This document shows, in pieces, positions 660-64,000 of a stretch of 64,000 nucleotides of DNA (position 1 is its first letter; every line of letters starts with the position of its first letter). This DNA comes from a virus. The stretch covers positions 1 to 64,000 of the IMG/VR virus record IMGVR_UViG_3300011988_000002; one strand, written 5' to 3'. A program made the position numbers and the translations under genes. A model generated the notes under the pieces. The model ran no database searches, was not told where the DNA came from, and saw only the letters and a list, made by a program, of their open reading frames with translations.

Positions 660-1442
660 TCACTTCCTATCCCATAATTTTACTAAACTAAAACTTGCAA
701 CTGGAGTTTTACCTTCATCTGCAATATATGCTTTTCTAAAATCATCATATATCTTTTGATTTTCAGGTGTAAAAAGTATTGATTTACCAACATTTATCAT
801 TTTCTTAACTCTGTAATCATCTTTCATTCCACTATCTATTATAAGTTGATATAAAAGTACATCAATCCAGAAATAATCAGATATAAGAAATGTCTCAACT
901 CCTAAATCTCCAGTACAGAAAAAGTCTAAATAATTACTTATTCCTTCTTTTGTATCATTAAATGTTTTAATATTACTTCCAAATATATTCCTAAGTATTC
1001 TCTCATCATCAATTAAGTTATCTTTCATTATAAAAAAATAATTATTCTCATCAGAGATTATACTCTCAGCATTCAAGTTTACGCTACTTGGTATAGTAGC
1101 GTAACTCAAATTCTTGTAATGTTTAATAAGAAATCTTAACTCATCTGCAAATAGAATAGAAGGTTTAAAGTAAATAAAGTTATTTTTAATATCTTGTGGC
1201 ATAAACATACCACCTTCCTTAGGCATAAGAGATATCCTATTCATAGAATCAACTCTTATAGTATAAGGTGTAATAAGTGAATGCTCTAGTTTTTCAACTA
1301 TAGAAGTTAAAAGATTATCAAAATCCTGACTCTTTATACGTCTTGCATTATCTGACAAGATATCAAGACACCATAAATCATAACTAAACACCACATTATT
1401 AACAGTAGATACTATACTACTTTTTACTCTTAGTTCGTCCAT
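660..1442 (-). CDS. hypothetical protein (260 aa)
   Basis: Long ORF whose stop lies 5 nt from the next gene; its start overlaps the upstream DHH gene by 13 nt. Confidence 0.6.
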   Translation of the reverse strand: MDELRVKSSIVSTVNNVVFSYDLWCLDILSDNARRIKSQDFDNLLTSIVEKLEHSLITPYTIRVDSMNRISLMPKEGGMFMPQDIKNNFIYFKPSILFADELRFLIKHYKNLSYATIPSSVNLNAESIISDENNYFFIMKDNLIDDERILRNIFGSNIKTFNDTKEGISNYLDFFCTGDLGVETFLISDYFWIDVLLYQLIIDSGMKDDYRVKKMINVGKSILFTPENQKIYDDFRKAYIADEGKTPVASFSLVKLWDRK

Positions 1443-2725
1443 TCGTTATAAACCTCCTTAAAGTTAAGATAGAAAAACTCATCTAGTGCATGTCTTATTC
1501 TTTCAAATGATATTCTTGTAGCAATTCTGTTATATGTTTCATCATCAAATATGCTCTTAGTATCACGTCTACAACTAAATCCAGCAGCATTTTTATGTCC
1601 ACCACCAGATAAACCATAGGTTTCACCAATATATCTTGCAATTTGAGGAGATTCAACCTCTGTTACATGATAACCAGTATACACAGTTCCACCTGTTTTA
1701 TGAAATGTTATAACGATATCTACATCTTTATACTCTTCCATAATCTTTTCTTTTATATTTGATGCAAATTTCCATTCAGCTGGAACAAGAGCTATTTTAA
1801 ACATCTTTTCTAAAATACCACTTGTAGTTGAATCTCTGAAGTAATTTACAAATCCAGTTAAAGGGTGATTCTTAGCTTCATTATAGGCAACTTCTACAAG
1901 TTCTTTATATTTTCTGTCACAGTCATTAACCCAACTATAAACAGAATCAGAATTTAAACTTACTCCAGAATCTATAAAAGCTACAAGTATTCTAAGTAAT
2001 TCAACATTATCATCAACTACTTTATCAACTGTACCCCATTTTTGACCTCTATACCATTGAGCATCTCCAGGTTTATATCTTTGTTTCCATAAGAAAGTAT
2101 CCCAAAGATTAACATTGTATGACCATGCTCTTAGATTTCTTTCATAAAGTTGAACTTGCCATAGCTCAGCTTCACTATCTAACCTTTTCATACATGCTCC
2201 ATAACTTATAGTTGCTCCACAATGTTCTATATCAGTTAAAACTTGATAATCAGCTAGTCTATCTTCACCTATAACAGCAACTATTTCATCTCTAGTTCTA
2301 ACATTTCCAGAATGATGGTCATACCAACTAAATTTAACATTATCTGGATAGTCTGCTTCATTAAACGTCTTTAAGTCTAAAAACATTCTGTCTGTTATGA
2401 CTACTTCTATATCTACTATATAAGGAATATCCTTATATCTGTCTAAAACCTCTTTAACTGCATACTTACATATCATTGAAGTCTCTTCCTCACGAGATGT
2501 TCTTTCCATGTAGACATCATAGTTAATCTTTATAGTCTCAGCATACATCATCATATTAAGTGCTGATGTAACCCCATCTAAGTCAGAATGAGATACTATT
2601 ATAAGATGCTTAGGATTTCTGTACACAACACCACTGTCATCAAACCCTCTAACAGCTAAATACTTTCTTTCATCTTTCCAAAAGTCTCCATTTTCATCAA
2701 CTTTTGCATTCCAATTTCTTCTCAT
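1430..2725 (-). CDS. DHH/DHHA1-family phosphoesterase (RecJ-core, NrnA or GdpP-like nuclease or phosphodiesterase)
   Basis: DHH motif I IVSHSDLDGVTS, motif III WYDHHSGN and the DHHA1 motif SGGGHKNAAGF are all present in the translation. Confidence 0.8.
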   Translation of the reverse strand: MRRNWNAKVDENGDFWKDERKYLAVRGFDDSGVVYRNPKHLIIVSHSDLDGVTSALNMMMYAETIKINYDVYMERTSREEETSMICKYAVKEVLDRYKDIPYIVDIEVVITDRMFLDLKTFNEADYPDNVKFSWYDHHSGNVRTRDEIVAVIGEDRLADYQVLTDIEHCGATISYGACMKRLDSEAELWQVQLYERNLRAWSYNVNLWDTFLWKQRYKPGDAQWYRGQKWGTVDKVVDDNVELLRILVAFIDSGVSLNSDSVYSWVNDCDRKYKELVEVAYNEAKNHPLTGFVNYFRDSTTSGILEKMFKIALVPAEWKFASNIKEKIMEEYKDVDIVITFHKTGGTVYTGYHVTEVESPQIARYIGETYGLSGGGHKNAAGFSCRRDTKSIFDDETYNRIATRISFERIRHALDEFFYLNFKEVYNEWTN

Positions 2726-3226: not shown

Positions 3227-4428
3227 CTACCTTGATTTAATGTATTTGTAGAAGTTAGAACCTTTACGACTAGACTTCTTCTCTTTTTCAATATTTTTAG
3301 CTTCAACACTGTCTTTTCTATACCCATTTAAATAGTTACTAGCATATTCTTCTGGTATGTCAACACCATATTGATGAATAAATCCGTCTGTAAATAGATT
3401 TTCACGTTTACGTTTATTATAAGTATCTATAGTCTGAGTAAAACTCATATCAACTGGGTACACTACATGACCCAAATCTCCTCCAACTCTACCAACTCTT
3501 GATAAAGTTTGAGTTATCTCAGACCTTGCAAATGTAAACTCTAGTAAAACTATAACTCTTATGTGTTTATCGTCATAACCTCTACCTATTTTTTGTGTAG
3601 TAGAAACTATAAATTTCTTATTCTTATTTTCTTCATTCTCTTTTAAACTTTTACTACTATTAACTATACCTATATCATCTTCATCTATACCAAATCTTTC
3701 ATGAAGTTTATTTGCAACTATCTCACAGTTTTCAATTCTACCTACGAAAAATACTATTCTTCCTTCTTCACTAAGCATCTTCTTCATAAGAGAATCATCT
3801 TTAATATACATTTTATCCATAATAAAATCTAAGAATATATCTTTACGAGCAAATATATTATTATACTCTATCTTAAACATAGATTCATTCCAACCGCGAA
3901 TCTTCATAAATTCCTTTCTAGTTGGATTCATCTTGCCTCTTATAAAGTATATGTTTTTATTTGCAGGTACTTTAACATCATCACCTAGATGCAATACATT
4001 CTTATAAATTATCTGAAATACTCTGTTATCTGTTTGTAAGTTCCTATAAGGTGTACCTGTAAGATATAGGTTATATTCAAAGTTAAAATATACTTCAAGT
4101 TTATATGTAGTAGACACATTTCTATCTACTTCGTCTATTACTTTCATTCTAAGATTCATTTTATTACAAATAATATCAGATATAGTCTCTATACCATATG
4201 TTTTAATTATACTCTCAAGCATAGCCTGAGTTAGAAATAAACCGTTTATTTTATCGTATTTAAGGTCCATTATATCAGAACCTTTCGATAAAACATACAT
4301 TCCTTCTTTTCCTAAAATCTTACAAAAAGATTCATATCCTTGCTTTATTAAATCACTGTTATATACAATGAATATAAATTTACACTTGAGCTCATGTACT
4401 GTATGAGCTGCAAGATAAGTTTTACCTA
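3227..4428 (-). CDS. SNF2-family SF2 helicase, exon 2 (carries motif I GKT through motif VI)
   Basis: Upstream of the annotated Met the frame stays open and reads LGKTYLAAHTVHEL. Further motifs are VIDEVD (II), LYLTGTPYRN (III) and QTLSRVGRVGGD (VI). Joining it to exon 1 rebuilds motif I as ILALAPG-L-GKT. Confidence 0.8.
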
Positions 4429-5494
4429 CGTTTTTGACTGACTATGTCTTTAAACTAATAATAGTTTACGAACCGTTTCGGGATAATCCCTACTCTACTC
4501 CCTATTAGATTTAAGATTTGCATAACTTAAACCTATTTCTTCCAAATTAGTTAAGTGCCTTACCTCATAGAAGTAGCCGTAATAAAAAGTATCCTATCCC
4601 AATAACACCATAAATATGATGCTATCGGGATTTGATATGACTACAACTCTAATTTTATGGGTTTCGATAGTCGATGGACACATATGTTTAGATATTATTT
4701 AGATTTTGTTACTACTGTAAGTACTACATCAGTTGCTGAAGTTAAAGAATTAAATTCACTTTGTTCTTTAGTACCTGTTACACCACCAGTTGCAATCCAT
4801 TTAAGACCATCTCTTTGCTTAGTAGCTGCTTTTTCTGTTTTAATAGTAACTGTAGGCCAAGCTAGTCCTTTAAGACCAACTGGTCCTGTAGGTGAAGTTC
4901 CTGTAAGTTCTATTTCTTTAGAAGCTTGTCCATCCACTAATGCATCTTCTCCACCTTTGAATGTAACTTTAATCTTTTTATTTGCAGGTGTTGACGGTGC
5001 TCCTGATACTTTAGCTTTTATAACTTCTTTCATAGATTTGATTACAAATCCTGCTATAAGTTCTGGTTCAGTTTTAGATACAGACGATACATCTTTTGCA
5101 ACCATAGAATCAACTGGAACTTTAGTTATAATAGTTTCATCAAATCCAGCTTTATTAAGTTCAAGTCTTAGATGTATTAAAACTTGTTGATTTTCACCTA
5201 CATTTTGCCAGAACTTAGCAACTTCTGGTTTGCTAGATTCATTAGCTTTTTTAACTACTGCTTCAATAAACTTATTTATGTTATACATAACATTCCTCCT
5301 TTTTATATTAATTTTATTTGCAAATTTTATCTAAACATACTTTGTTGCTCAACACGTTCTTAGTTAATACATTTTTACTATATCAATAAGCTTTAACTTA
5401 TTGCCATAAAGATATTACTATCATTTACTTAGTAGTATAACATTATAAACGAACGCTCCAAGCAATTAGATTCGTAAGGGCTTAGTACAACTTA
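4429..5494 (-). mobile_element. Group I self-splicing intron (1066 nt) in the helicase gene, carrying an internal ORF
   Basis: Exon 1 ends in U (GGGU) and the intron ends in G (AAAAACG). The internal guide sequence CUAAGCCCU pairs with the exon-1 end AGGGU to form P1, with a G.U wobble at the splice site, and with UAG of exon 2 to form P10. An S-like element AAGACAUAGUC lies 12 nt from the 3' splice site, and there are td-like blocks CGACUAUCGAAAC and GGAGUAGAGUAGGG....CCGAAACGG. If the intron is not removed, translation stops 9 codons in (LSCTKPLRI*). Confidence 0.75.
4695..5288 (-). CDS. Intron-encoded protein of unknown function (197 aa; no HNH, GIY-YIG, LAGLIDADG or His-Cys box signature)
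   Basis: Strong Shine-Dalgarno AAAAGGAGGAATGTTATG. The ORF lies entirely inside the intron. It is rich in K, V, T, G and S, with only one His and one Tyr. Confidence 0.65.
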   Translation of the reverse strand: MYNINKFIEAVVKKANESSKPEVAKFWQNVGENQQVLIHLRLELNKAGFDETIITKVPVDSMVAKDVSSVSKTEPELIAGFVIKSMKEVIKAKVSGAPSTPANKKIKVTFKGGEDALVDGQASKEIELTGTSPTGPVGLKGLAWPTVTIKTEKAATKQRDGLKWIATGGVTGTKEQSEFNSLTSATDVVLTVVTKSK

Positions 5495-5879
5495 ACCCTG
5501 GGGCTAATGCAAGAATACATCTTCTATCTTCATTGAATAAAAAGTGACTGCTAAGTTTCTTAGCAAGTTCTTTTTGGTGTTCTAGTGGTGGATAAGCAAG
5601 ATTATAACTTATTAAATCAACCAGTGGTATTTTAACTTGCTTATAATTATACCTAGTTCTAGTAACACTTTGTATTATATTCTTAGATATTTTAGGAATT
5701 CCTATAACTGTATCTTCACCACCATCTATTTCAAAGAATGCTTTAGGTATTTGTGCTTTTGTATTAAAGTCTATTATTGAAAGTTTTGACCTTAAATTCA
5801 AATATGCTCCGTTATCTAAAGTTGACTTTGGAATATAAAATGCAGTAGTTGTCTCTAGTATATCAAATATAGGAAACAC
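5495..5879 (-). CDS. SNF2-family SF2 helicase, exon 1 (N-terminal 128 codons plus 1 nt)
   Basis: Ends ...RRCILALAPG just before the intron. The only in-frame start is a GTG that directly abuts the AAGGAGG Shine-Dalgarno; an ATA codon lies 8 nt downstream of it. Confidence 0.7.
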
Positions 5880-5895
5880 CTCCTTATTATAGAAG

Positions 5896-5942
5896 AAAAA
5901 ATAAAAGAAATATAGTCCCTGACTAAATATTTGTCAAGGACT
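5896..5942 (-). terminator. rho-independent terminator
   Basis: Hairpin AGTCCTTGAC-n8-GTCAGGGACT followed by a T-run on the minus strand. Confidence 0.6.
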
Positions 5943-12714: not shown

Positions 12715-14526
12715 CTAACTTATTCCTATAACTATATCATTTGCTTGTAAATCTATTCCTTTAACTCCAAGTGCAGACCTAGATACAAGTTTTATAGTGC
12801 TTGTATCACAAACTAAGCTTTTACCCATCTTAGTATATATAAGGATAGATTCCTCACTTGTCTTTCTTACCATTGCAACTATTCTGTTATTATGTTTAGT
12901 TTGTGTACATTTAACTCCTGCTCCATTTCTATTCTGTACTTTAAACTCATCTGGATTACATCTTTTAATATAACCCGATTCTGTTACAAATACAACAGGA
13001 GTATTACCATCAACTCTACACATAGAACTTACAAAGTCTTTTTCATCTTTATCAAGTTTTATACCACTAACTCCTACAGCTCCAATTCCAGTAGGTTTAA
13101 TTTCATTACTATCTATTCTTATACACATTCCATTATGTGTTGCAATGAGTATGTCTCTTTCTTTGGAGCTATCTGGAATTATAACTATATCAACTATCTT
13201 ATCAGCACTGTCAACACCAATTAAGTTCTTTCCATTTGCATTAATCTTTTTAAGATTTTTAAGGTCTGTTGATTTTACCATTCCTTTAACAGAACAGCTA
13301 ATAAGAGTTCCAAATTCATTATTATTTACAAATACAAGAACTATATTTTCACTGTCTCTAAGACTTAGTAAGTTTCTTGCAAGTGCTCCTCTTGCAAGTT
13401 TTGATACAGTATCAATCTCATAAGCTTTCTTAGTGTAAACCCTACCTTTAGAAGTTAAAAACACAAGTTGCTGTCTTGCTGTTACATTAAGAACTTGCTT
13501 TATTTCATCCCCTTCTAGTAAAGTTCCTACTGAGTTTCCTTTTCCTCCACGTCTTTGTTCTTTGTCAAGAGGTTCTGTACGTTTTATATAACCTTTTTGT
13601 GTCATTATAATAGTACATGGTTCATCAGGAATTGTATCCTCTTCTGTTATATCATCTCTTTTCTTTTGTATCTTTGTTTTACGTGTAAGATAAGGCTTTG
13701 CTTCTTTGATATTTCTTATATCTTCCCATTCCTTAATCATATACTCGTCTACATCTTTATTAGATTTAGTTCTTGTAAGTCTTGTAAGTGTTTTAATTCT
13801 TTCTTTTACATCTTTTTCCTCTTCTCTTGCATCACTCATATTAAGCTTTGTAAGTCTTGCAAGTTTAAGGTCTAGTATATACTGAGCTTGAGCTTCAGAT
13901 AACTTAAAAGACTTCATAAGTTCTTCTCTTGCAGAAGATGTATCTTTTGCATTGCGAATAATCTTTACGGCTCTGTCTATATCTTTAGTAACTATAAATA
14001 AACCTTCAAGTATATGAAGTCTGTCTTCATTTTTCTTAAGTTCTATCATAAACTTATTATGAAGACAAGTTTCCCTAAAAGAAATAAATGAACTCATGAT
14101 ATCTTTTATATTAACTTTCTCTTTAAACTTACCATTCACAAGTAAGTTATGTAAAGGTTTTAGCACTTTCTCAAAAGGAGTTTTATGTATAAGAAGAGAA
14201 ACTACTCTGTCTATAGTTTCTCCTTTTGCTAAATCTATACATATTCTAATACCACCTTTTTGAGTAGTCTCATCTCTTATGTCTTTTATATTGAGCTCCC
14301 CGTTATCAACTAATGTTCCAACAGCAATAGTTATATCTGGTATTTTAGTATTATAAGGAATAGAAGTAATAACTAGTCTTTCATTACCTTTACTATCCTT
14401 TTCTACTTTATATTCACCTCTTACTCTTACATATCCATCACCACTTGTATAACATCTTTTAAGTCCGTCTGTTCCATTTATAATACCCCCTAATGGAAAG
14501 TCAGGACCTTTTATTATTTCATACAT
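12715..14526 (-). CDS. gyrA: DNA gyrase / topoisomerase IV subunit A homolog, C-terminal part (from the GPDFP motif onward)
   Basis: The motifs MYEIIKGPDFPLGG and AQYILDLKLARLTKL are colinear with GyrA. It is in the same frame as the upstream fragment, separated from it by a single TAA. Confidence 0.8.
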   Translation of the reverse strand: MYEIIKGPDFPLGGIINGTDGLKRCYTSGDGYVRVRGEYKVEKDSKGNERLVITSIPYNTKIPDITIAVGTLVDNGELNIKDIRDETTQKGGIRICIDLAKGETIDRVVSLLIHKTPFEKVLKPLHNLLVNGKFKEKVNIKDIMSSFISFRETCLHNKFMIELKKNEDRLHILEGLFIVTKDIDRAVKIIRNAKDTSSAREELMKSFKLSEAQAQYILDLKLARLTKLNMSDAREEEKDVKERIKTLTRLTRTKSNKDVDEYMIKEWEDIRNIKEAKPYLTRKTKIQKKRDDITEEDTIPDEPCTIIMTQKGYIKRTEPLDKEQRRGGKGNSVGTLLEGDEIKQVLNVTARQQLVFLTSKGRVYTKKAYEIDTVSKLARGALARNLLSLRDSENIVLVFVNNNEFGTLISCSVKGMVKSTDLKNLKKINANGKNLIGVDSADKIVDIVIIPDSSKERDILIATHNGMCIRIDSNEIKPTGIGAVGVSGIKLDKDEKDFVSSMCRVDGNTPVVFVTESGYIKRCNPDEFKVQNRNGAGVKCTQTKHNNRIVAMVRKTSEESILIYTKMGKSLVCDTSTIKLVSRSALGVKGIDLQANDIVIGIS

Positions 14527-14529
14527 AGC

Positions 14530-15141
14530 TTATGTTGTAATACTTCTGTTTTTTATATATTCTATACATAAATTTATTACATCATTAAGGTTATGTGGTA
14601 AAAAAGATGCTGCAAATCCAACTCCTATACCAATGTTTCCATTTATTAATATATCTGGTAAAATTTCTGGAAAATAAAGAGGCATAAGTAAACTATCATC
14701 ATAATTAGGAATATACTCTACAACATCTTTTGCTAAATCTTTAAGTATTATCTTTTCTGTATACCAATTTAATTTACACTCAGTATATCTTTTATCAGCC
14801 TCTTGGTCTGCTGAGATAGAACCAAAATTTCCATTTGGTGATATATAAGGTATATTCATAGAGAAATCTTGTGCCATATTTACAAGTGTTCCATATGCAG
14901 ATGAGTCACCATGTGGATGATATTTACCTATGACTTCTCCGACTATTCTTGCAGATTTTACAAAAGGACCATTATAACTTACCTTTAAATCGTGCATAGC
15001 ATATAAAACTGCAAGTGATGATGGCTTTTGATTATCTTCAATATTAGAAATTGCTCTTCCTTGTATAACCATTCTAGCATAGTCTATATAACTTTCAGAA
15101 AGGTCATCTATTATATCTTTCTCTTCTATAATTGCAGCCAT
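14530..15141 (-). CDS. gyrA: DNA gyrase / topoisomerase IV subunit A homolog, N-terminal fragment with the catalytic tyrosine
   Basis: VLYAM, GKYHPHGDSSAYGTLVNMAQ and the active-site block DKRYTE (Tyr) are present. It ends ...IEYIKNRSITT then TAA. A GGAGGA Shine-Dalgarno lies upstream. Confidence 0.8.
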   Translation of the reverse strand: MAAIIEEKDIIDDLSESYIDYARMVIQGRAISNIEDNQKPSSLAVLYAMHDLKVSYNGPFVKSARIVGEVIGKYHPHGDSSAYGTLVNMAQDFSMNIPYISPNGNFGSISADQEADKRYTECKLNWYTEKIILKDLAKDVVEYIPNYDDSLLMPLYFPEILPDILINGNIGIGVGFAASFLPHNLNDVINLCIEYIKNRSITT

Positions 15142-58354: not shown

Positions 58355-61300
58355 TTAATATTTAGATTTTGCAATACTTCTTGCATTATTTATCAGAAAA
58401 TTGTCTCTACTTTCACTTTGCATAAATGTTAGTATTTGCGTAAGTACTTCAGTAGTTTTAGCTTGTTGCTTCATAAGTCCACTAAACAGTGACGACATTA
58501 CTTTAATTAAAACTCCTATAGTTTTATCATTATCAGAAGTATTTACTATTTGTACTGGACGATTATCTTGATTTACTGGTCCGTCTCCTTTTTCTTCACC
58601 ACGTGATTTAGACATATTAGAAGTTGCACCTTTAAGTCCATTTCTTTGTGCATATGCAATGTTTTCAGCTTCTGTCATCTTTAAGTTATTATAAGATAAA
58701 TCAAGTACTTTAAATGGGTCTATCTTGTTACCATTTGCATCTATAACTTCGTAGTGTAAGTGAGAACCGTATGCATCAACTCTACCATTAGGTCCTACTC
58801 CACCTGCTTCTCCTATTTGTTGACCAGCTTTTACAAATTCTCCTATTTTAAGAGGAGTTCTTCTAGATAAATGTAAGTATCTTGTAGATATACCTTTATC
58901 ATCAGTTATTTGTACTATACCAAAGTTAGATGTATTTGATGTTATCTTACCACTATGCGTTGCAAATATAGGTGTTCCTTTATATGCACGTATATCTATA
59001 CCTCTGTGTGGATTTGAACCTCCTTTTACATTACGAGGACCAAATGCAGATGTAACTACTACATCATTTTTACTTCCTTTAATCGGCATATTATTCATAA
59101 TACCAGCATACGTCTTGCCTATAGACTCACCATATTTAACAGTAGAATCTATCTTATCTGGTTTGTATATAGTATCTCCTGACGTTGAAAGACCAAATGC
59201 ACCAGCATAATTTATAGCAGTACCACTTTTCTTATTTCTAACATCAAGTCCTGATATAAGTCCATTTTTAAACCAAGTATACATTTCTGATACTGTAAAT
59301 GGTCTTATACGTTTCTTACCACCTTCATAGAAGAAATAAGGATTGGCATCTATTACAGATTTTGATGTTTCAAGTTGTATACCTATTGCATCTTTAGAAG
59401 CCTGAATATACTTTCTTGCTCCACTAAATCCAAACGCATGAACCATATAAACTTCTTCAGGAAGTGGGTCACGACCTGCATGTTGACGTGCAATTTTATA
59501 TTCATCTGCAAGGTGAAATGCTCCCATAAATGCATTCATATATGGGTTAAATCTAGGGTCTTGTCCTGTTCCCATTCCACGTTGCATATCTTGTGGTGTT
59601 AGTCCTATTTTAGATGCATGTTTATTAGTAACATCTTTCCATGTTGCCGATGTAAATTGGAATAACCCTTTTGCAGACGAAGTTCTTGCACCAGCATTTG
59701 CATCAAATCCAGATTCTTTACCAGCTATTGCCATCATAAGATTTTCATCAACACCAGTTATTTGAGCAACTTTTGATATAATAGCAATAGTATCGTTGTT
59801 ACCATTAGTTATTTTAGAGAAGTCTCCTTGCAAACCAGTTCCTACACCCATAGTAAGACCAAAGTTATTACCTCCAAAAGCTGCAGCTGCTGCATTTTGT
59901 ACAAGTCCAAGTGCTCCATTTATAGCAGGATAACTTCCATATTTAAATTTAGCCACTTTATTTGCACGAAGTCTACCAAAGTTTATAGGTTTTATATCAC
60001 TAGGTCCACCTTTTTCACCTTTTAGTGCTTGTTGTCTATCAAGTAAATACTTAAGGTCTCTTTCTTTCTTATCTGGTTTACTAAAGCTTTCTCTTACTTT
60101 AAGTGGATATTTATTAAGTTTTTCACTATTTATAAATTCCATCTTAGCCATTCTATAAGAGTAGTCACTGTCACCTTGATGTGCTTTTACAAACTCATAC
60201 CACTCAGGTGTATCAACATATGATGTCATTTTGCTCATAAAAGCTTTATCACGTTCTGCTTTTTTAGCAGGGTCTAACCACTTACCGTTCTTATCAAACA
60301 TAGAACCATCGCCGTTATCGTTACCTTCACCCATAGCATAGAACTCTTCTTCTTTCCTACCAGTCATCTCTGTTGCTTTATTAGCAAGATATCTTTGTAA
60401 AAATGCAAGTCCAGTCCATGTTAGTGTAGCTCCAAGACCTGTTTGTGCAAATGCATTAACTTTACTAAGTCCATTAGTTACAAGTCCCCATGTTTTACTA
60501 GCAACATTTTTAACACCACCCCAAAGTTTAGACATAAGTGCCTTACCTTTAGTAAGTAAAGATGTGATACCAAGCATACTAAGTCCATTTTTAATAGTGT
60601 CAACTACTCCTCCACCAGTCTTTTTAGCAGCTTCTACTTGAGATGTAACTCCTTGTGTAGTTTGGGTAGTTCCTGTTCCACCTAAAGCACCATTTAGTAT
60701 TGCATCTTCAACCTTTTCTTTTTTAATTTGGTCTCTTTGAAATGATGGTTTGCTAAACATTTGTCTTATATGATGAAGTCTGTTTTTATCTTTAGGTGTT
60801 TTAGCATCTTGATAACTCATCTGTAATGCAGTTTTAGATGATTCTAAATCTGTATTTGTAAGTGCAATCGTATCGTCACCTATAATACGAACGTTCACAA
60901 AATCATTTATTTTATCAAGTATTTCTTGTAGTTTTGATACTATTGGGTCTTGTGTTTCATTTGATTCGTCTGAAACAACAGGTGTTCCATCTGCATTAGT
61001 TGCACCAGTTGGTACAAGTCCAGTTGATGACCCTTTATTTCCTATATATTTACCTAGTTTATAAAGTCCATATACTGCCATTCCTATACCGTTTGATTTA
61101 AGTGTGGATTTAACAGCGTCACGAGCTCTTTCTTTAAAGTTCTTTTTAAACTTCTCTACTTTACTCATATCAGAGTCTGCTTTTAAGCTAGAATCTCCTG
61201 GATGAGTGAGTACGGTTACAGATATAAGTCTTGCAAGTATATCACCTGTTAGTATTTCTGTTTTATAAACTTGTGCTTGTGGGTCACATATTTGACATTT

Positions 61301-64000
61301 CTTATTTCCATATTGAAGTAAAGTTACGTAATGTGAACCATCATTATCTATATTTTGAAGTTGAAGTATTACAGATGATTTAGGACCACTAGCTATAGAT
61401 TTGAAGTTTTGAGGAGTAAATGTATTTTCACTTCCTTTATATTGAGTAACTTCCCATCCTATCTTTATAGCCATAGCTTTAAAGAATTCCATATTCACAC
61501 CATCATCTGTTAGATACTCATTAGCAATATCAAGCATTGCTTGTCCAGATATAGGTGGATATCCATGTCTTGTAATAGCTGCATTAAATGCACCAAGTGC
61601 ACAACCTGCAACAGATACTTTCTTTCCGTTTGCAAATGTAAGGTCTTTAAAATCACTCATACGCCAAGATGCTTGTGTATCTTGTGTAGTAGATTTGTCT
61701 CCATTACCAGAACCTCCACCTACTTCTGCTTTACGCATATTCATAAGTGTTGATATAAGCTGTTCTGATTCTCCACGAGACCTTGAGTCATTTACTATAT
61801 AACCTGATTGAAGCTTTTCATATATAATTCTGTCCCAAGCATCTCCTGCAATACCTTTAATGTTACCTAAATCAGCTTTAAAGTCGTTAAGTACAACTGT
61901 TTCTTGTATATCATACATAGCTTTACGTGTAATTGCATCTAAAGGCATTTGAGGATTCATATAAGATAAGTATCTTATATATGTTTTAGACAAGTTTTCA
62001 AGTCCCTTTGCAACGTCTGTACGAAGATTAAGTGCATCTGTAAGACCTTTACGCTTATCTTCATCAAGTTCGTCAAACCATTTCTTTACTGCTTTTTCTT
62101 TTTCTTCTGGACTCAAGTCTCCATTTTGCATTATATTATTAAATGCAGTCATATCAGAACTTCTTATTATTTCAGAAGGTAGCAAAACCTTACCATTTCT
62201 TATTGCACGTTCATAATTATGTTTTGAAAGTGCTGCTTCTAAGTATGGTTTACCAAATTTATATATTACATCTTTTCCAGATAAAGGTTTACCTGTTTTA
62301 GGATCTATTATTTCATTTTGTATAAATAAATCCATATCTTCTATATCTTTAAGCTCTTGCATATAAGTTCTATCTGCATAATATCTTCTCATAAGCTCTT
62401 GTATTTTTGCATCATTAAGATTATGTCCACCTTTTGAGAATCTATTAAACATAGCAAGTAGTTCTGGGTCTCTTATATCTTCAATGTTACCATTTAGATA
62501 GTTACTCAAACCTTCTTTAAAATCTTTATTTCTTTCAATTTGTGCATTTAAAGCATCTACTTTCATTCTTGCCATAGTTTTATCTCTTGTTTGCTTATAC
62601 ATATCACCTTTAGTTATAAACTTCATATCATGCATAGCTATATTACGTTGAGATAAGTCACGTTTACTTCTTTCAGATTCTTCTCTTAAATGGTAAGCTT
62701 CTTTATTTTTACCCTCAAGCATGTCTTTTCTTCTTTTCTTAGCTGCATCTTTTTCCTCTCTTGTTGCTCTATGGTCTTCTTCTATTTCTTGTAAATCTCT
62801 TGCAAAATCTCTAAGTTCTTCTATTCTTTTTGTATTTTCAACTATTCTTTTTTGAATTTCTACTCTTTCATCTTCAGTAATATCAGGGTCTTCAAGTCTT
62901 TTAGCAAGATTTTCACTATCTCTTTCTAAGTTACGTATCATATCTCTTGTAATATCGTTTTCTATTTGAGCATCTGTACGTCTATCTCTTATATTGAAAT
63001 ACTTCTTTACGAAATCAAACTTCATAAGAAATCTACCTAGTCTTTTAAAGATACCTTTTTTACTCTCATCATTATTATCAAAGAGTCTTTTTTGTGCAAA
63101 TCTCATAAGTGTAGGAGCAATAGACCCAGCAAGAAGTCCAGTCATAAGTCCAGCAAATGGTGATATAAGTGTTCCTAGTGGTCCCATTGCTTGAAATGCT
63201 TTCATAGTCATAGAACCAACTTTACCTCCAAGACCAATCGAAGGAAGCCACTTATTTATAAACTTTGCCATAAATATCTGTCTATTTGTAATCCCGTATT
63301 CATTTTTAAATTCACCTGCAGGACCTAGTATGTTTTCAATCTTTTCTCTGTTTTTAGCAAAACTCATTGCAACAGCACCAACTGTTGCCATCATTTTACC
63401 AAGCCAAGGTGATTGAATTATACCTTTTTGCTCAAGTAATTTACCTATTGCATATCCTGCACCTGCTCCACCTATTATACCCATATTACGTGTAACTTTA
63501 GCATCTTGGAATACATTTGTAAGCATTCTGTTAATACTTGTAATAGGAGTTGATATTTCAAAATCATCACCCATTCTTACACGTCTGTCTTCTCTTTCTA
63601 TACCTTGCATCATAGCTTCATTGTATCTAGAGTATTTAGCTTTAAGTTGATTTATTTGAAGCTCTCCCTTATCATTTATAAAAGGAACAAGTTGTGCTGG
63701 GTCAGATATAAAACCTAGTCTTTCATAATCTGACGCTTTTGCACCCATACCAACATAGTGTGCCATAGAAGCAGCAGTCATATTAGCACTGTGCATCTTT
63801 GTATATATAGCATTTGCTTTAAAGTACTTGTTAAGTTCTTTATCAAGCTTTTCATTATCTTCATCTGTAAGTTCATTATTATAGTATCTATTTCTAAGAC
63901 CTTTATCAGTAAGACCACCATTATTTATCATAATCTTTATATTTTCAAGTCTTTGTTGCTTTAAAGCTTTATCACGTTGTTCAGCAGTCATATTCTTCAT
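58355..64000 (-). CDS. tail tape-measure-like or virion-associated peptidoglycan hydrolase, 5'-truncated at the window edge (more than 1881 aa), with lytic transglycosylase (SLT) and M23 peptidase domains
   Basis: SLT motif AIAGKESGFDANAGARTSSAKGLFQFTSATW. M23 motifs HRGIDIRAYKGTPIFATHSG and GSHLHYEV. Long charged helical regions. A Cys...His segment (VAGCALGAF...GSHYVTLL) may be a cysteine-peptidase domain. Confidence 0.8.
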   Translation of the reverse strand: MKNMTAEQRDKALKQQRLENIKIMINNGGLTDKGLRNRYYNNELTDEDNEKLDKELNKYFKANAIYTKMHSANMTAASMAHYVGMGAKASDYERLGFISDPAQLVPFINDKGELQINQLKAKYSRYNEAMMQGIEREDRRVRMGDDFEISTPITSINRMLTNVFQDAKVTRNMGIIGGAGAGYAIGKLLEQKGIIQSPWLGKMMATVGAVAMSFAKNREKIENILGPAGEFKNEYGITNRQIFMAKFINKWLPSIGLGGKVGSMTMKAFQAMGPLGTLISPFAGLMTGLLAGSIAPTLMRFAQKRLFDNNDESKKGIFKRLGRFLMKFDFVKKYFNIRDRRTDAQIENDITRDMIRNLERDSENLAKRLEDPDITEDERVEIQKRIVENTKRIEELRDFARDLQEIEEDHRATREEKDAAKKRRKDMLEGKNKEAYHLREESERSKRDLSQRNIAMHDMKFITKGDMYKQTRDKTMARMKVDALNAQIERNKDFKEGLSNYLNGNIEDIRDPELLAMFNRFSKGGHNLNDAKIQELMRRYYADRTYMQELKDIEDMDLFIQNEIIDPKTGKPLSGKDVIYKFGKPYLEAALSKHNYERAIRNGKVLLPSEIIRSSDMTAFNNIMQNGDLSPEEKEKAVKKWFDELDEDKRKGLTDALNLRTDVAKGLENLSKTYIRYLSYMNPQMPLDAITRKAMYDIQETVVLNDFKADLGNIKGIAGDAWDRIIYEKLQSGYIVNDSRSRGESEQLISTLMNMRKAEVGGGSGNGDKSTTQDTQASWRMSDFKDLTFANGKKVSVAGCALGAFNAAITRHGYPPISGQAMLDIANEYLTDDGVNMEFFKAMAIKIGWEVTQYKGSENTFTPQNFKSIASGPKSSVILQLQNIDNDGSHYVTLLQYGNKKCQICDPQAQVYKTEILTGDILARLISVTVLTHPGDSSLKADSDMSKVEKFKKNFKERARDAVKSTLKSNGIGMAVYGLYKLGKYIGNKGSSTGLVPTGATNADGTPVVSDESNETQDPIVSKLQEILDKINDFVNVRIIGDDTIALTNTDLESSKTALQMSYQDAKTPKDKNRLHHIRQMFSKPSFQRDQIKKEKVEDAILNGALGGTGTTQTTQGVTSQVEAAKKTGGGVVDTIKNGLSMLGITSLLTKGKALMSKLWGGVKNVASKTWGLVTNGLSKVNAFAQTGLGATLTWTGLAFLQRYLANKATEMTGRKEEEFYAMGEGNDNGDGSMFDKNGKWLDPAKKAERDKAFMSKMTSYVDTPEWYEFVKAHQGDSDYSYRMAKMEFINSEKLNKYPLKVRESFSKPDKKERDLKYLLDRQQALKGEKGGPSDIKPINFGRLRANKVAKFKYGSYPAINGALGLVQNAAAAAFGGNNFGLTMGVGTGLQGDFSKITNGNNDTIAIISKVAQITGVDENLMMAIAGKESGFDANAGARTSSAKGLFQFTSATWKDVTNKHASKIGLTPQDMQRGMGTGQDPRFNPYMNAFMGAFHLADEYKIARQHAGRDPLPEEVYMVHAFGFSGARKYIQASKDAIGIQLETSKSVIDANPYFFYEGGKKRIRPFTVSEMYTWFKNGLISGLDVRNKKSGTAINYAGAFGLSTSGDTIYKPDKIDSTVKYGESIGKTYAGIMNNMPIKGSKNDVVVTSAFGPRNVKGGSNPHRGIDIRAYKGTPIFATHSGKITSNTSNFGIVQITDDKGISTRYLHLSRRTPLKIGEFVKAGQQIGEAGGVGPNGRVDAYGSHLHYEVIDANGNKIDPFKVLDLSYNNLKMTEAENIAYAQRNGLKGATSNMSKSRGEEKGDGPVNQDNRPVQIVNTSDNDKTIGVLIKVMSSLFSGLMKQQAKTTEVLTQILTFMQSESRDNFLINNARSIAKSKY

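Follow-up and report, generated by a model that had tools for sequence, protein, structure and literature searches.

A 197-residue protein encoded in the P6 loop of a predicted group IA intron in a phage helicase gene: a candidate passenger gene related to giant repeat proteins

Open reading frames (ORFs) of mobile group I introns act as homing endonucleases according to a 2014 review (PMC3984707), and the question raised by the locus described here is what such a frame does when it bears no recognisable sign of being one. The locus lies in a window of 64,000 nucleotides (nt), positions 1 to 64,000 of IMG/VR virus record IMGVR_UViG_3300011988_000002, from an uncultivated phage of about 240 kb. 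In this window, a 1066-nt insertion at 5494..4429 on the minus strand splits the Walker A codons (PGLGKT) of a superfamily 2 (SF2) helicase gene and carries an ORF of 197 amino acids (aa). An earlier note on this DNA, made from the sequence alone, had described the ORF as intron-borne but not a recognisable homing endonuclease, and had offered three options for it: a new class of intron-mobility protein, a maturase or a passenger gene. The third is favoured by the analysis reported here, in that the C-terminal module of the protein is shared with giant repeat proteins, the gene is found paired with such a giant outside introns and the intron is fixed in its clade; nothing supports the first two, and several observations stand against them. 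The reading as a whole, namely a passenger gene in the P6 loop, a neutral harbour, which encodes a fibre- or adhesin-related binding or adaptor protein and is maybe translated from the excised intron, is given a probability of about 0.6. Taken alone, the part that makes the ORF a passenger and not a mobility protein is held with good confidence, and the part that assigns the protein a surface or fibre-accessory function is tentative, somewhat short of an even chance.

The split helicase gene and its predicted group I intron

Exon 1 of the helicase (5495..5879, minus strand; about 128 codons, with an uncertain start, GTG at 5879) ends in ...ALAPG plus the first base of a Leu codon, and exon 2 (3227..4428, minus strand) opens with the second and third bases of that codon followed by GKTYLAAH..., and contains DEVD and Helicase_C, PF00271 being matched on homologues of this exon. 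The break thereby falls after base 1 of the Leu codon in PGLGKT. The computed join of ...CCAGGGT (to 5495) with TAGGTAAAACT... (from 4428) gives CCAGGGTTAGGTAAAACT, encoding PGLGKT, and the predicted ligated exon junction reads ...CCAGGGUUAGGUAAAACU.... The joined exons form an in-frame, unbroken 528-aa SF2 helicase with APGLGKT as Walker A, colinear with uninterrupted homologues of 518-562 aa, in agreement with the junction that had been proposed in the earlier note. Before joining, the ORF that covers exon 1 (5466..5879) runs through ...ILALAPGL into 8 codons of non-helicase sequence, ending in ...SCTKPLRI and a stop; the homologues of this exon are upstream genes of 131-137 aa in the relatives L001-L006. 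The stop is the UAA at 5467..5469 (minus strand) in J3/4, directly past the 5' strand of P3, and in some relatives the exon-1 frame ends still earlier, inside the P1 loop. A stop after the P3 5' strand would keep exon-1 ribosomes out of the ribozyme core. A sigma-70-like promoter, identified by consensus match alone (TTGACA, 17 nt, TATATT; 11/12), lies 5' of exon 1 at 5909..5937 on the minus strand.

The secondary structure of the insertion was assessed with 23 distinct copies from metagenomic and IMG/VR contigs, which were aligned after removal of the P6 loop and whose pairs were counted on a hand-derived structure. P1, P3-P8 and P7.1/P7.2 are 80-100% paired over these copies, with double compensatory changes in P5, P5b, P6, P7.1, P7.2 and P8, and the approximately 470 nt of non-coding flanks are conserved, their changes preserving the helices. 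P1 (5477..5499; all helices are on the minus strand) pairs exon AGGGU (5499..5495) with the internal guide GCCCU (5481..5477) and is invariant, with 23/23 copies paired; the U that ends the 5' exon pairs with G at the splice site. The base immediately 5' of the intron is T (U) and the terminal intron base, at 4429, is G, each in 23/23 copies. In P3, ACGAAUC (5469..5475) pairs with GGUUCGU (4474..4468) at 99%, with one-sided changes (U·G to C-G, A-U to G·U), and P4 (UUGCU 5465..5461 with AGCAA 5349..5345; 90% paired) encloses P5 and its extensions. P5 (5456..5451 with 5359..5354) shows G-C to A-U compensation, and the P5b hairpin is compensated in the relative L007. The P6 stem, GUAUGUUUAG (5340..5331) with CUAAACAUAU (4691..4682), has 100% of its cells paired and double compensatory changes at three positions (AU/CG/GC, GC/UA/AU); its loop contains the Shine-Dalgarno sequence and the ORF. 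P7 (GACUAU 4672..4667 with AUAGUC 4445..4440) is 100% paired and invariant, and encloses, within 4440..4672, P7.1, P7.2, a small hairpin at 4490..4480, the 3' strand of P3, and P8, the strands of P3 and P7 interleaving as in the group I pseudoknot. The stretch from P7 to the 3' strand of P3 contains two long hairpins, P7.1 (4629..4598) and P7.2 (4535..4506), which are 92-93% paired and show several double compensatory changes. Compensatory changes are also seen in P8 (4467..4452), which is compensated in L007. The P7.1/P7.2 pair is a hallmark of subgroup IA, the home of the classic phage introns. On this comparative evidence, the insertion (4429..5494) is identified as a group IA-type intron, for which self-splicing is predicted.

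A search with the spliced helicase, which carried out the comparison of intron-plus and intron-minus relatives suggested in the earlier note, divided the homologues by identity. All those at 69-99% are exon-2-only proteins of 357-379 aa and are thus split, and all those at 37-47% are full-length proteins of 518-562 aa with ResIII and Helicase_C. The uninterrupted homologues read QPGYGKTYI at the insertion point, as in L056 and L057, where the uninterrupted helicase gene sits in a broadly similar replication-gene neighbourhood. A scattered occurrence of the intron in close relatives, as homing would produce, was not found in this homologue search; one candidate intron-minus relative, L010, proved to be a tblastn over-extension and carries the ORF as well as the intron. 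When IMG/VR and metagenomes were scanned for the intron motifs, this helicase intron alone was recovered, together with 10 stretches that were without other intron motifs and were taken as chance matches; none of the copies lacked the ORF, bore an endonuclease or lay at a different site. INPHARED phages gave no match by megablast of the locus or by tblastn of the ORF; the nearest cultured helicases, those of Fusobacterium phages JD-Fnp (26% identity), are uninterrupted. Because the intron is present in all close relatives and absent from distant ones, vertical inheritance is indicated rather than homing, and the distribution over these sequences points to one ancient gain followed by vertical descent with no ongoing homing.

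The loop ORF and its protein

The 197-aa ORF (4695..5288, minus strand; ATG start, TAA stop) lies in the terminal loop of P6. Its ATG follows AAAAAGGAGG after 6 nt, the upstream sequence being AAAAAGGAGGAATGTT-ATG, and the Shine-Dalgarno GGAGG at 5299..5295, which the earlier note had read correctly, is conserved in all intron copies aligned there. The composition reported in that note was likewise found again: K26, V22, T19, A16, E15, S15 and G15, with one His, one Tyr, no Cys and an isoelectric point (pI) of 9.4. The longest stop-free run in the intron, 211 codons, was reached in 0/2000 mononucleotide shuffles (mean 72, maximum 190). Relatives of the ORF fall into 31 protein clusters at 53-98% identity, all unannotated and without a Pfam domain, some of them on contigs of up to 242 kb, and an intact ORF of 191-440 aa is present in 23/23 distinct intron copies; lack of conservation, which would have spoken against the earlier note, is therefore not observed. 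Two candidate promoter signals were rejected. A sigma-70-like match within the intron (5352..5324) is equalled by shuffled sequence, and AAATTTGCAAATA, conserved upstream of the Shine-Dalgarno, has 13 matches in the window against 11.8 expected and is therefore not a recurring promoter motif. On the opposite strand, a 177-aa ORF (4657..5190, plus) overlaps the intron ORF and is open in L010 too, probably as a side-effect of coding-strand codon usage.

An AlphaFold2 model built from a 23-sequence alignment (mean predicted local distance difference test score, pLDDT, 83) comprises a helical N-domain (approximately residues 1-95; 2-95 in the model), a disordered Pro-rich linker (96-103) and a beta-grasp C-domain (approximately 104-197, with its beta-rich part at 105-192). 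In a Foldseek search of BFVD, the model found one true homologue, an uncharacterised 280-aa protein of 'Myoviridae sp. ctkfK18' (expectation value, E, 1.5e-12), and an annotated 'Tail protein' of the same phage was matched too with a probability of 0.98. The modelled C-domain weakly resembles the InlB B-repeat (PDB 2y5p) at the fold level, and MoaD/ubiquitin-like proteins score equally.

The description of the protein as not a recognisable homing endonuclease withstood motif, profile and fold searches alike. Regular-expression searches of the 197-aa protein found no GIY-YIG, LAGLIDADG, HNH, CxxC, PD-(D/E)xK or EDxHD motif; Pfam, PHROGs, NCBIfam and PADLOC gave nothing significant for the ORF and its distant relatives, the matches to HTH_WhiA (E 0.09) and DUF1573 (E 0.013) both being below the cut-off; and PDB sequences searched with the single sequence and two profiles gave chance-level matches only. 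Structure prediction, which the earlier note had proposed as a check, yielded a model in which neither a divergent known homing-endonuclease fold nor a maturase or other nuclease fold was recognised. The residues invariant over distant members are structural or hydrophobic (F, G, L, P, T and W in the C-domain; M, Y, K, W, L, D, F and K in the N-domain), and the single His is not conserved. No endonuclease domain that might act in trans was found in the ten neighbouring ORFs. In a related contig, L055 (1..1708; ENA ERZ21659579 NODE_35), a 1220-aa gyrA homologue has precomputed Pfam matches to Intein_splicing, PT-HINT and HNH_3, so that selfish elements equipped with an endonuclease do occur in this group of phages, though not in the helicase intron.

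The ratio of nonsynonymous to synonymous substitution rates (dN/dS) is higher in the ORF than in helicase exon 2 for each relative compared with the window: 0.21 against 0.04 for L006, 0.43 against 0.14 for L001 and 0.70 against 0.05 for L002, with values of up to 0.88 reached in the analysis within the ORF. Between the window and L002, the N-domain is 48% identical and the helicase 93%. The C-domain (4695..4990) has a dS of 0.22-0.29, compared with 0.78-1.0 for the flanking helicase exon in the L002 and L001 comparisons, which suggests either recent exchange of this segment between lineages or extra constraint. Since the ORF is always intact and dN/dS stays below 1, the gene appears to be functional, yet fast-evolving and mosaic, and evolution of this kind is typical of host-interaction genes.

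Variable loop cargo and giant repeat proteins

The content of the P6 loop varies between related phages and reaches two genes and 4.7 kb. Long variants of the ORF (419-440 aa) occur in L012 (2476..3735) and L019 (2414..3736), relatives with a 94% identical helicase, and in L031, L036 and L045. They keep the N-domain, but have a divergent C-domain and, in addition, a long insert that includes an extra domain in the middle. The insert contains low-complexity linkers, an RRRRS motif and a middle domain of about 150 aa without a detectable family. N-domain types are reassorted with C-terminal types between short and long forms, and the occurrence of two N-domain types with the long form indicates module exchange. 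In L007, whose helicase shows 50% identity in the N-terminal exon and 79% over the aligned start of exon 2, the intron extends to 5229 nt and holds, between the same compensated P6 strands, a 191-aa homologue of the ORF and a second ORF of 1363 aa (5627..9718 of L007). This giant consists of many beta repeats and a C-terminal SASA (sialate O-acetylesterase-like, SGNH) domain, which scores 23.2 bits in Pfam, just below the cut-off of 24.8, and matches phrog_143 with E 7.5e-9. Two genes likewise occupy the intron of L055, one for a homologue of 232 aa and, after it, one for a giant homologue of at least 606 aa; this contig stops short of the 3' part of the intron. Homologues of the giant have 1459 aa (L054), at least 606 aa (L055) and at least 679 aa (L053) and are without family annotation.

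The same pairing occurs away from introns. A whole-library profile search recovered three small proteins, P0037, P0039 and P0040, which have the same C-domain joined to unrelated N-terminal regions; each of their genes is directly followed by a homologue of the giant repeat protein, with no intron sequence upstream. Free-standing small-plus-giant pairs are found in L054, L053 and L008/L009. The pair in L054 has a DHH-family gene on one side and lies upstream of a gene with a phage tail Collar domain, which is three genes further on. A gene of the DHH/DHHA1 family (RecJ-like phosphoesterase) is also present in the window (1430..2725, minus strand), two genes downstream of the helicase, and its homologue in L054 directly precedes the free-standing cassette. 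A hidden Markov model (HMM) of diverse C-domains matches repeats within the giants with per-domain scores of up to about 20 bits, from which the C-domain of the small protein is taken to be one copy of the building block of the giants. Two unannotated families are defined in this way, a new one of small proteins and a partner one made up of giant repeat proteins. Three further candidate homologues, P0041, P0043 and P0044, were discarded as spurious accumulations of low-complexity or repeat sequence (CheA P2 repeats, Calx-beta, PKD-like), the C-domain alignment, used in a word-indexed profile search, recovered three fragments only, and IMG/VR searched with the L055 giant or P0040 gave no related loci.

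A passenger gene, its rivals and known systems

From these observations, a possible course of events was proposed for the passenger gene. The P6 loop may act as a neutral safe harbour for accessory genes, because splicing would remove its content from the helicase mRNA. Translation of the cargo could use either the precursor or the intron RNA, excised and structured, as its template. The small protein would be a non-enzymatic binding or adaptor protein, in which the conserved beta-grasp module may contact a carbohydrate or other cell-surface ligand or a partner fibre protein, and the variable N-domain may anchor the protein to a phage-specific partner. The phage of the window would have retained only the small gene in its loop. 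In a broader form of this proposal, to which even odds are given, the vertically inherited intron has become, in a clade of uncultivated phages of about 240 kb, a gene-carrying platform whose P6 loop offers a safe-harbour slot for fast-evolving, domain-shuffling host-interaction genes that are kept and exchanged, from one gene of about 190 aa to two (4.7 kb).

Several points weigh against the proposal of a fibre-related passenger. All of its support is drawn from sequences of metagenomic contigs. No homologue of the giant protein is encoded in the 64-kb window, so the presumed partner is either missing or elsewhere in the genome. A gene inside a replication gene should appear on early or middle transcripts unless it has its own late promoter, which would be odd for a virion or fibre accessory. 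The Pfam family Flg_new (Listeria-Bacteroides repeat) was matched neither by 23 full-length members (E up to 1) nor by 11 diverse C-domains (E up to 5), and a pI of 9.4 fits nucleic-acid binding. The N-domain type of the window's protein is seen in intron-borne copies only and could have an intron-related role. Finally, Rfam group I models gave no match (E up to 1 on 4200..5800; gathering score on the whole window), a weak negative because the query included the P6 loop insertion of about 650 nt.

The last of these points is also what a genuinely split helicase, with an unrelated gene between its halves and no intron at all, would lead one to expect. The break, however, falls inside the Walker A Leu codon of PGLGKT, between bases 1 and 2; the flanks of about 470 nt are conserved with compensatory changes in a canonical group I layout; and intronless homologues are colinear across the junction. 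A split gene is accordingly the least probable of the explanations considered and is hardly credible. If the intron is accepted, a protein that serves it remains to be weighed. For an intron-mobilising homing endonuclease or nickase of a new, unrecognised class speak the typical location, a free-standing ORF with its own Shine-Dalgarno in the P6 loop as in I-TevI of the T4 td intron, and the basic character of the protein (pI 9.4), together with the function assigned to ORFs of mobile group I introns in the review cited above (PMC3984707). Against these stand the missing catalytic motif, the lack of any conserved His, Cys or acidic constellation and of a predicted nuclease fold, a C-domain that is the repeat unit of giant non-nuclease proteins, homologues away from any intron, and an intron that, instead of being sporadic, is fixed in the clade and missing from relatives outside it; an endonuclease is thus very improbable. 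Equally doubtful is a maturase or RNA chaperone that aids folding and splicing, perhaps most when the P6 loop holds kilobases. Such a role would suit the basic protein, the restriction of its N-domain type to intron-borne copies and the retention of the ORF in every recovered intron copy, but the N-domain evolves much faster than the conserved ribozyme core that it would bind, the C-domain is present in intron-free contexts, and there is no similarity to LAGLIDADG-type maturases or known RNA-binding folds.

A different kind of alternative keeps the passenger gene and moves its product inside the cell, as an early host-takeover, anti-defence or superinfection-exclusion protein co-transcribed with the helicase. 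The position within a replication gene of the early or middle class, with a strong sigma-70-like promoter match upstream, is what such a function would favour, and so are the fast, modular evolution (N-domain 48% against helicase 93%; dN/dS to 0.88) and the membership of the ORF in no known family. The sharing of the C-domain with giants, one of them esterase-like, and the presence of a pair near a tail-collar gene argue in the other direction, as does the lack of a PADLOC match, though PADLOC covers defence and not anti-defence. An intracellular function is therefore considered unlikely, and the fibre- or adhesin-related passenger is retained as the preferred reading.

Among the closest known systems is the T4 td intron, a group IA intron in which the ORF in the P6 region encodes the endonuclease I-TevI. 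The intron described here is similarly of group IA type with P7.1/P7.2, lies in a phage DNA-metabolism gene, and has a free-standing ORF with its own ribosome-binding site in P6 and an in-frame stop soon after the 5' splice site. In contrast, its ORF shows no endonuclease signature or fold, GIY-YIG included, the intron is clade-fixed and not sporadic, and the loop in relatives holds up to two genes and 4.7 kb. In fungal mitochondria, a vertically inherited group I intron of rnl houses rps3, a gene that does not encode an endonuclease. The two cases share the stable carriage of a non-endonuclease gene under vertical inheritance, but a ribosomal protein in an organellar rRNA gene is replaced here by fast-evolving, domain-shuffling cargo in a phage protein-coding gene; the rps3 intron is the topic of PMC5626475. 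In IStrons, too, a group I ribozyme renders a multi-kilobase insertion with ORFs other than homing endonucleases harmless to the gene. Their cargo is a transposase (TnpA/TnpB) that gives mobility, unlike the cargo here, which lies in the P6 loop and has no mobility signature, no transposase domain having been found in the ORF or in the cargo of relatives. Phage morons are accessory gene cassettes between core genes, and the loop genes are like them in being self-contained, with their own translation signals, in varying between close relatives and in occurring as the same cassette at different places; the insertion here, on the other hand, is in a ribozyme loop within an essential gene and not intergenic. 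IStrons, chimeras of a group I intron and an insertion sequence (IS) element, are the subject of PMC4227781 and bioRxiv 10.1101/2023.11.20.567912. Compared with the surface modules of the InlB B-repeat/Listeria-Bacteroides repeat type (PDB 2y5p), the C-domain shows the weak, model-based likeness of fold mentioned above and no Pfam match.

Against the textbook view that intron ORFs serve intron mobility, the locus looks like a counter-example with comparative depth, with the same intron at the same site across a phage clade and with non-nuclease loop genes that vary between relatives. Among the titles and abstracts returned by full-text searches on group I introns in phages, none describes accessory or structural genes as cargo of such an intron. 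If the proposal is true, this would be the first group I intron of a phage to house an ORF that works for the phage instead of the intron, and phages could domesticate self-splicing introns, using them to express accessory genes or as neutral sites for their insertion. Annotation pipelines, in which such loci are now called 'split helicase plus hypothetical protein', would need to change, and a natural precedent would be at hand for engineering cargo into ribozyme loops.

Two further features of the window were recorded. An ORF of at least 1881 aa (58355..64000, minus strand), whose upstream end coincides with the window edge or lies close to it, shows no homology by tblastn to the intron-associated giants. 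A gyrase/topoisomerase IV subunit A homologue (12715..15141, minus strand) is colinear with an 813-aa relative (40% identity over 807 residues) and is interrupted by an in-frame TAA at 14530..14532 followed by GCT ATG (...SITT, stop, A MYEIIKGPDFPL...), resulting in ORFs of 203 and 603 aa; stop-restart coupling in a truly split gene, readthrough at this codon or an error of assembly could each account for this.

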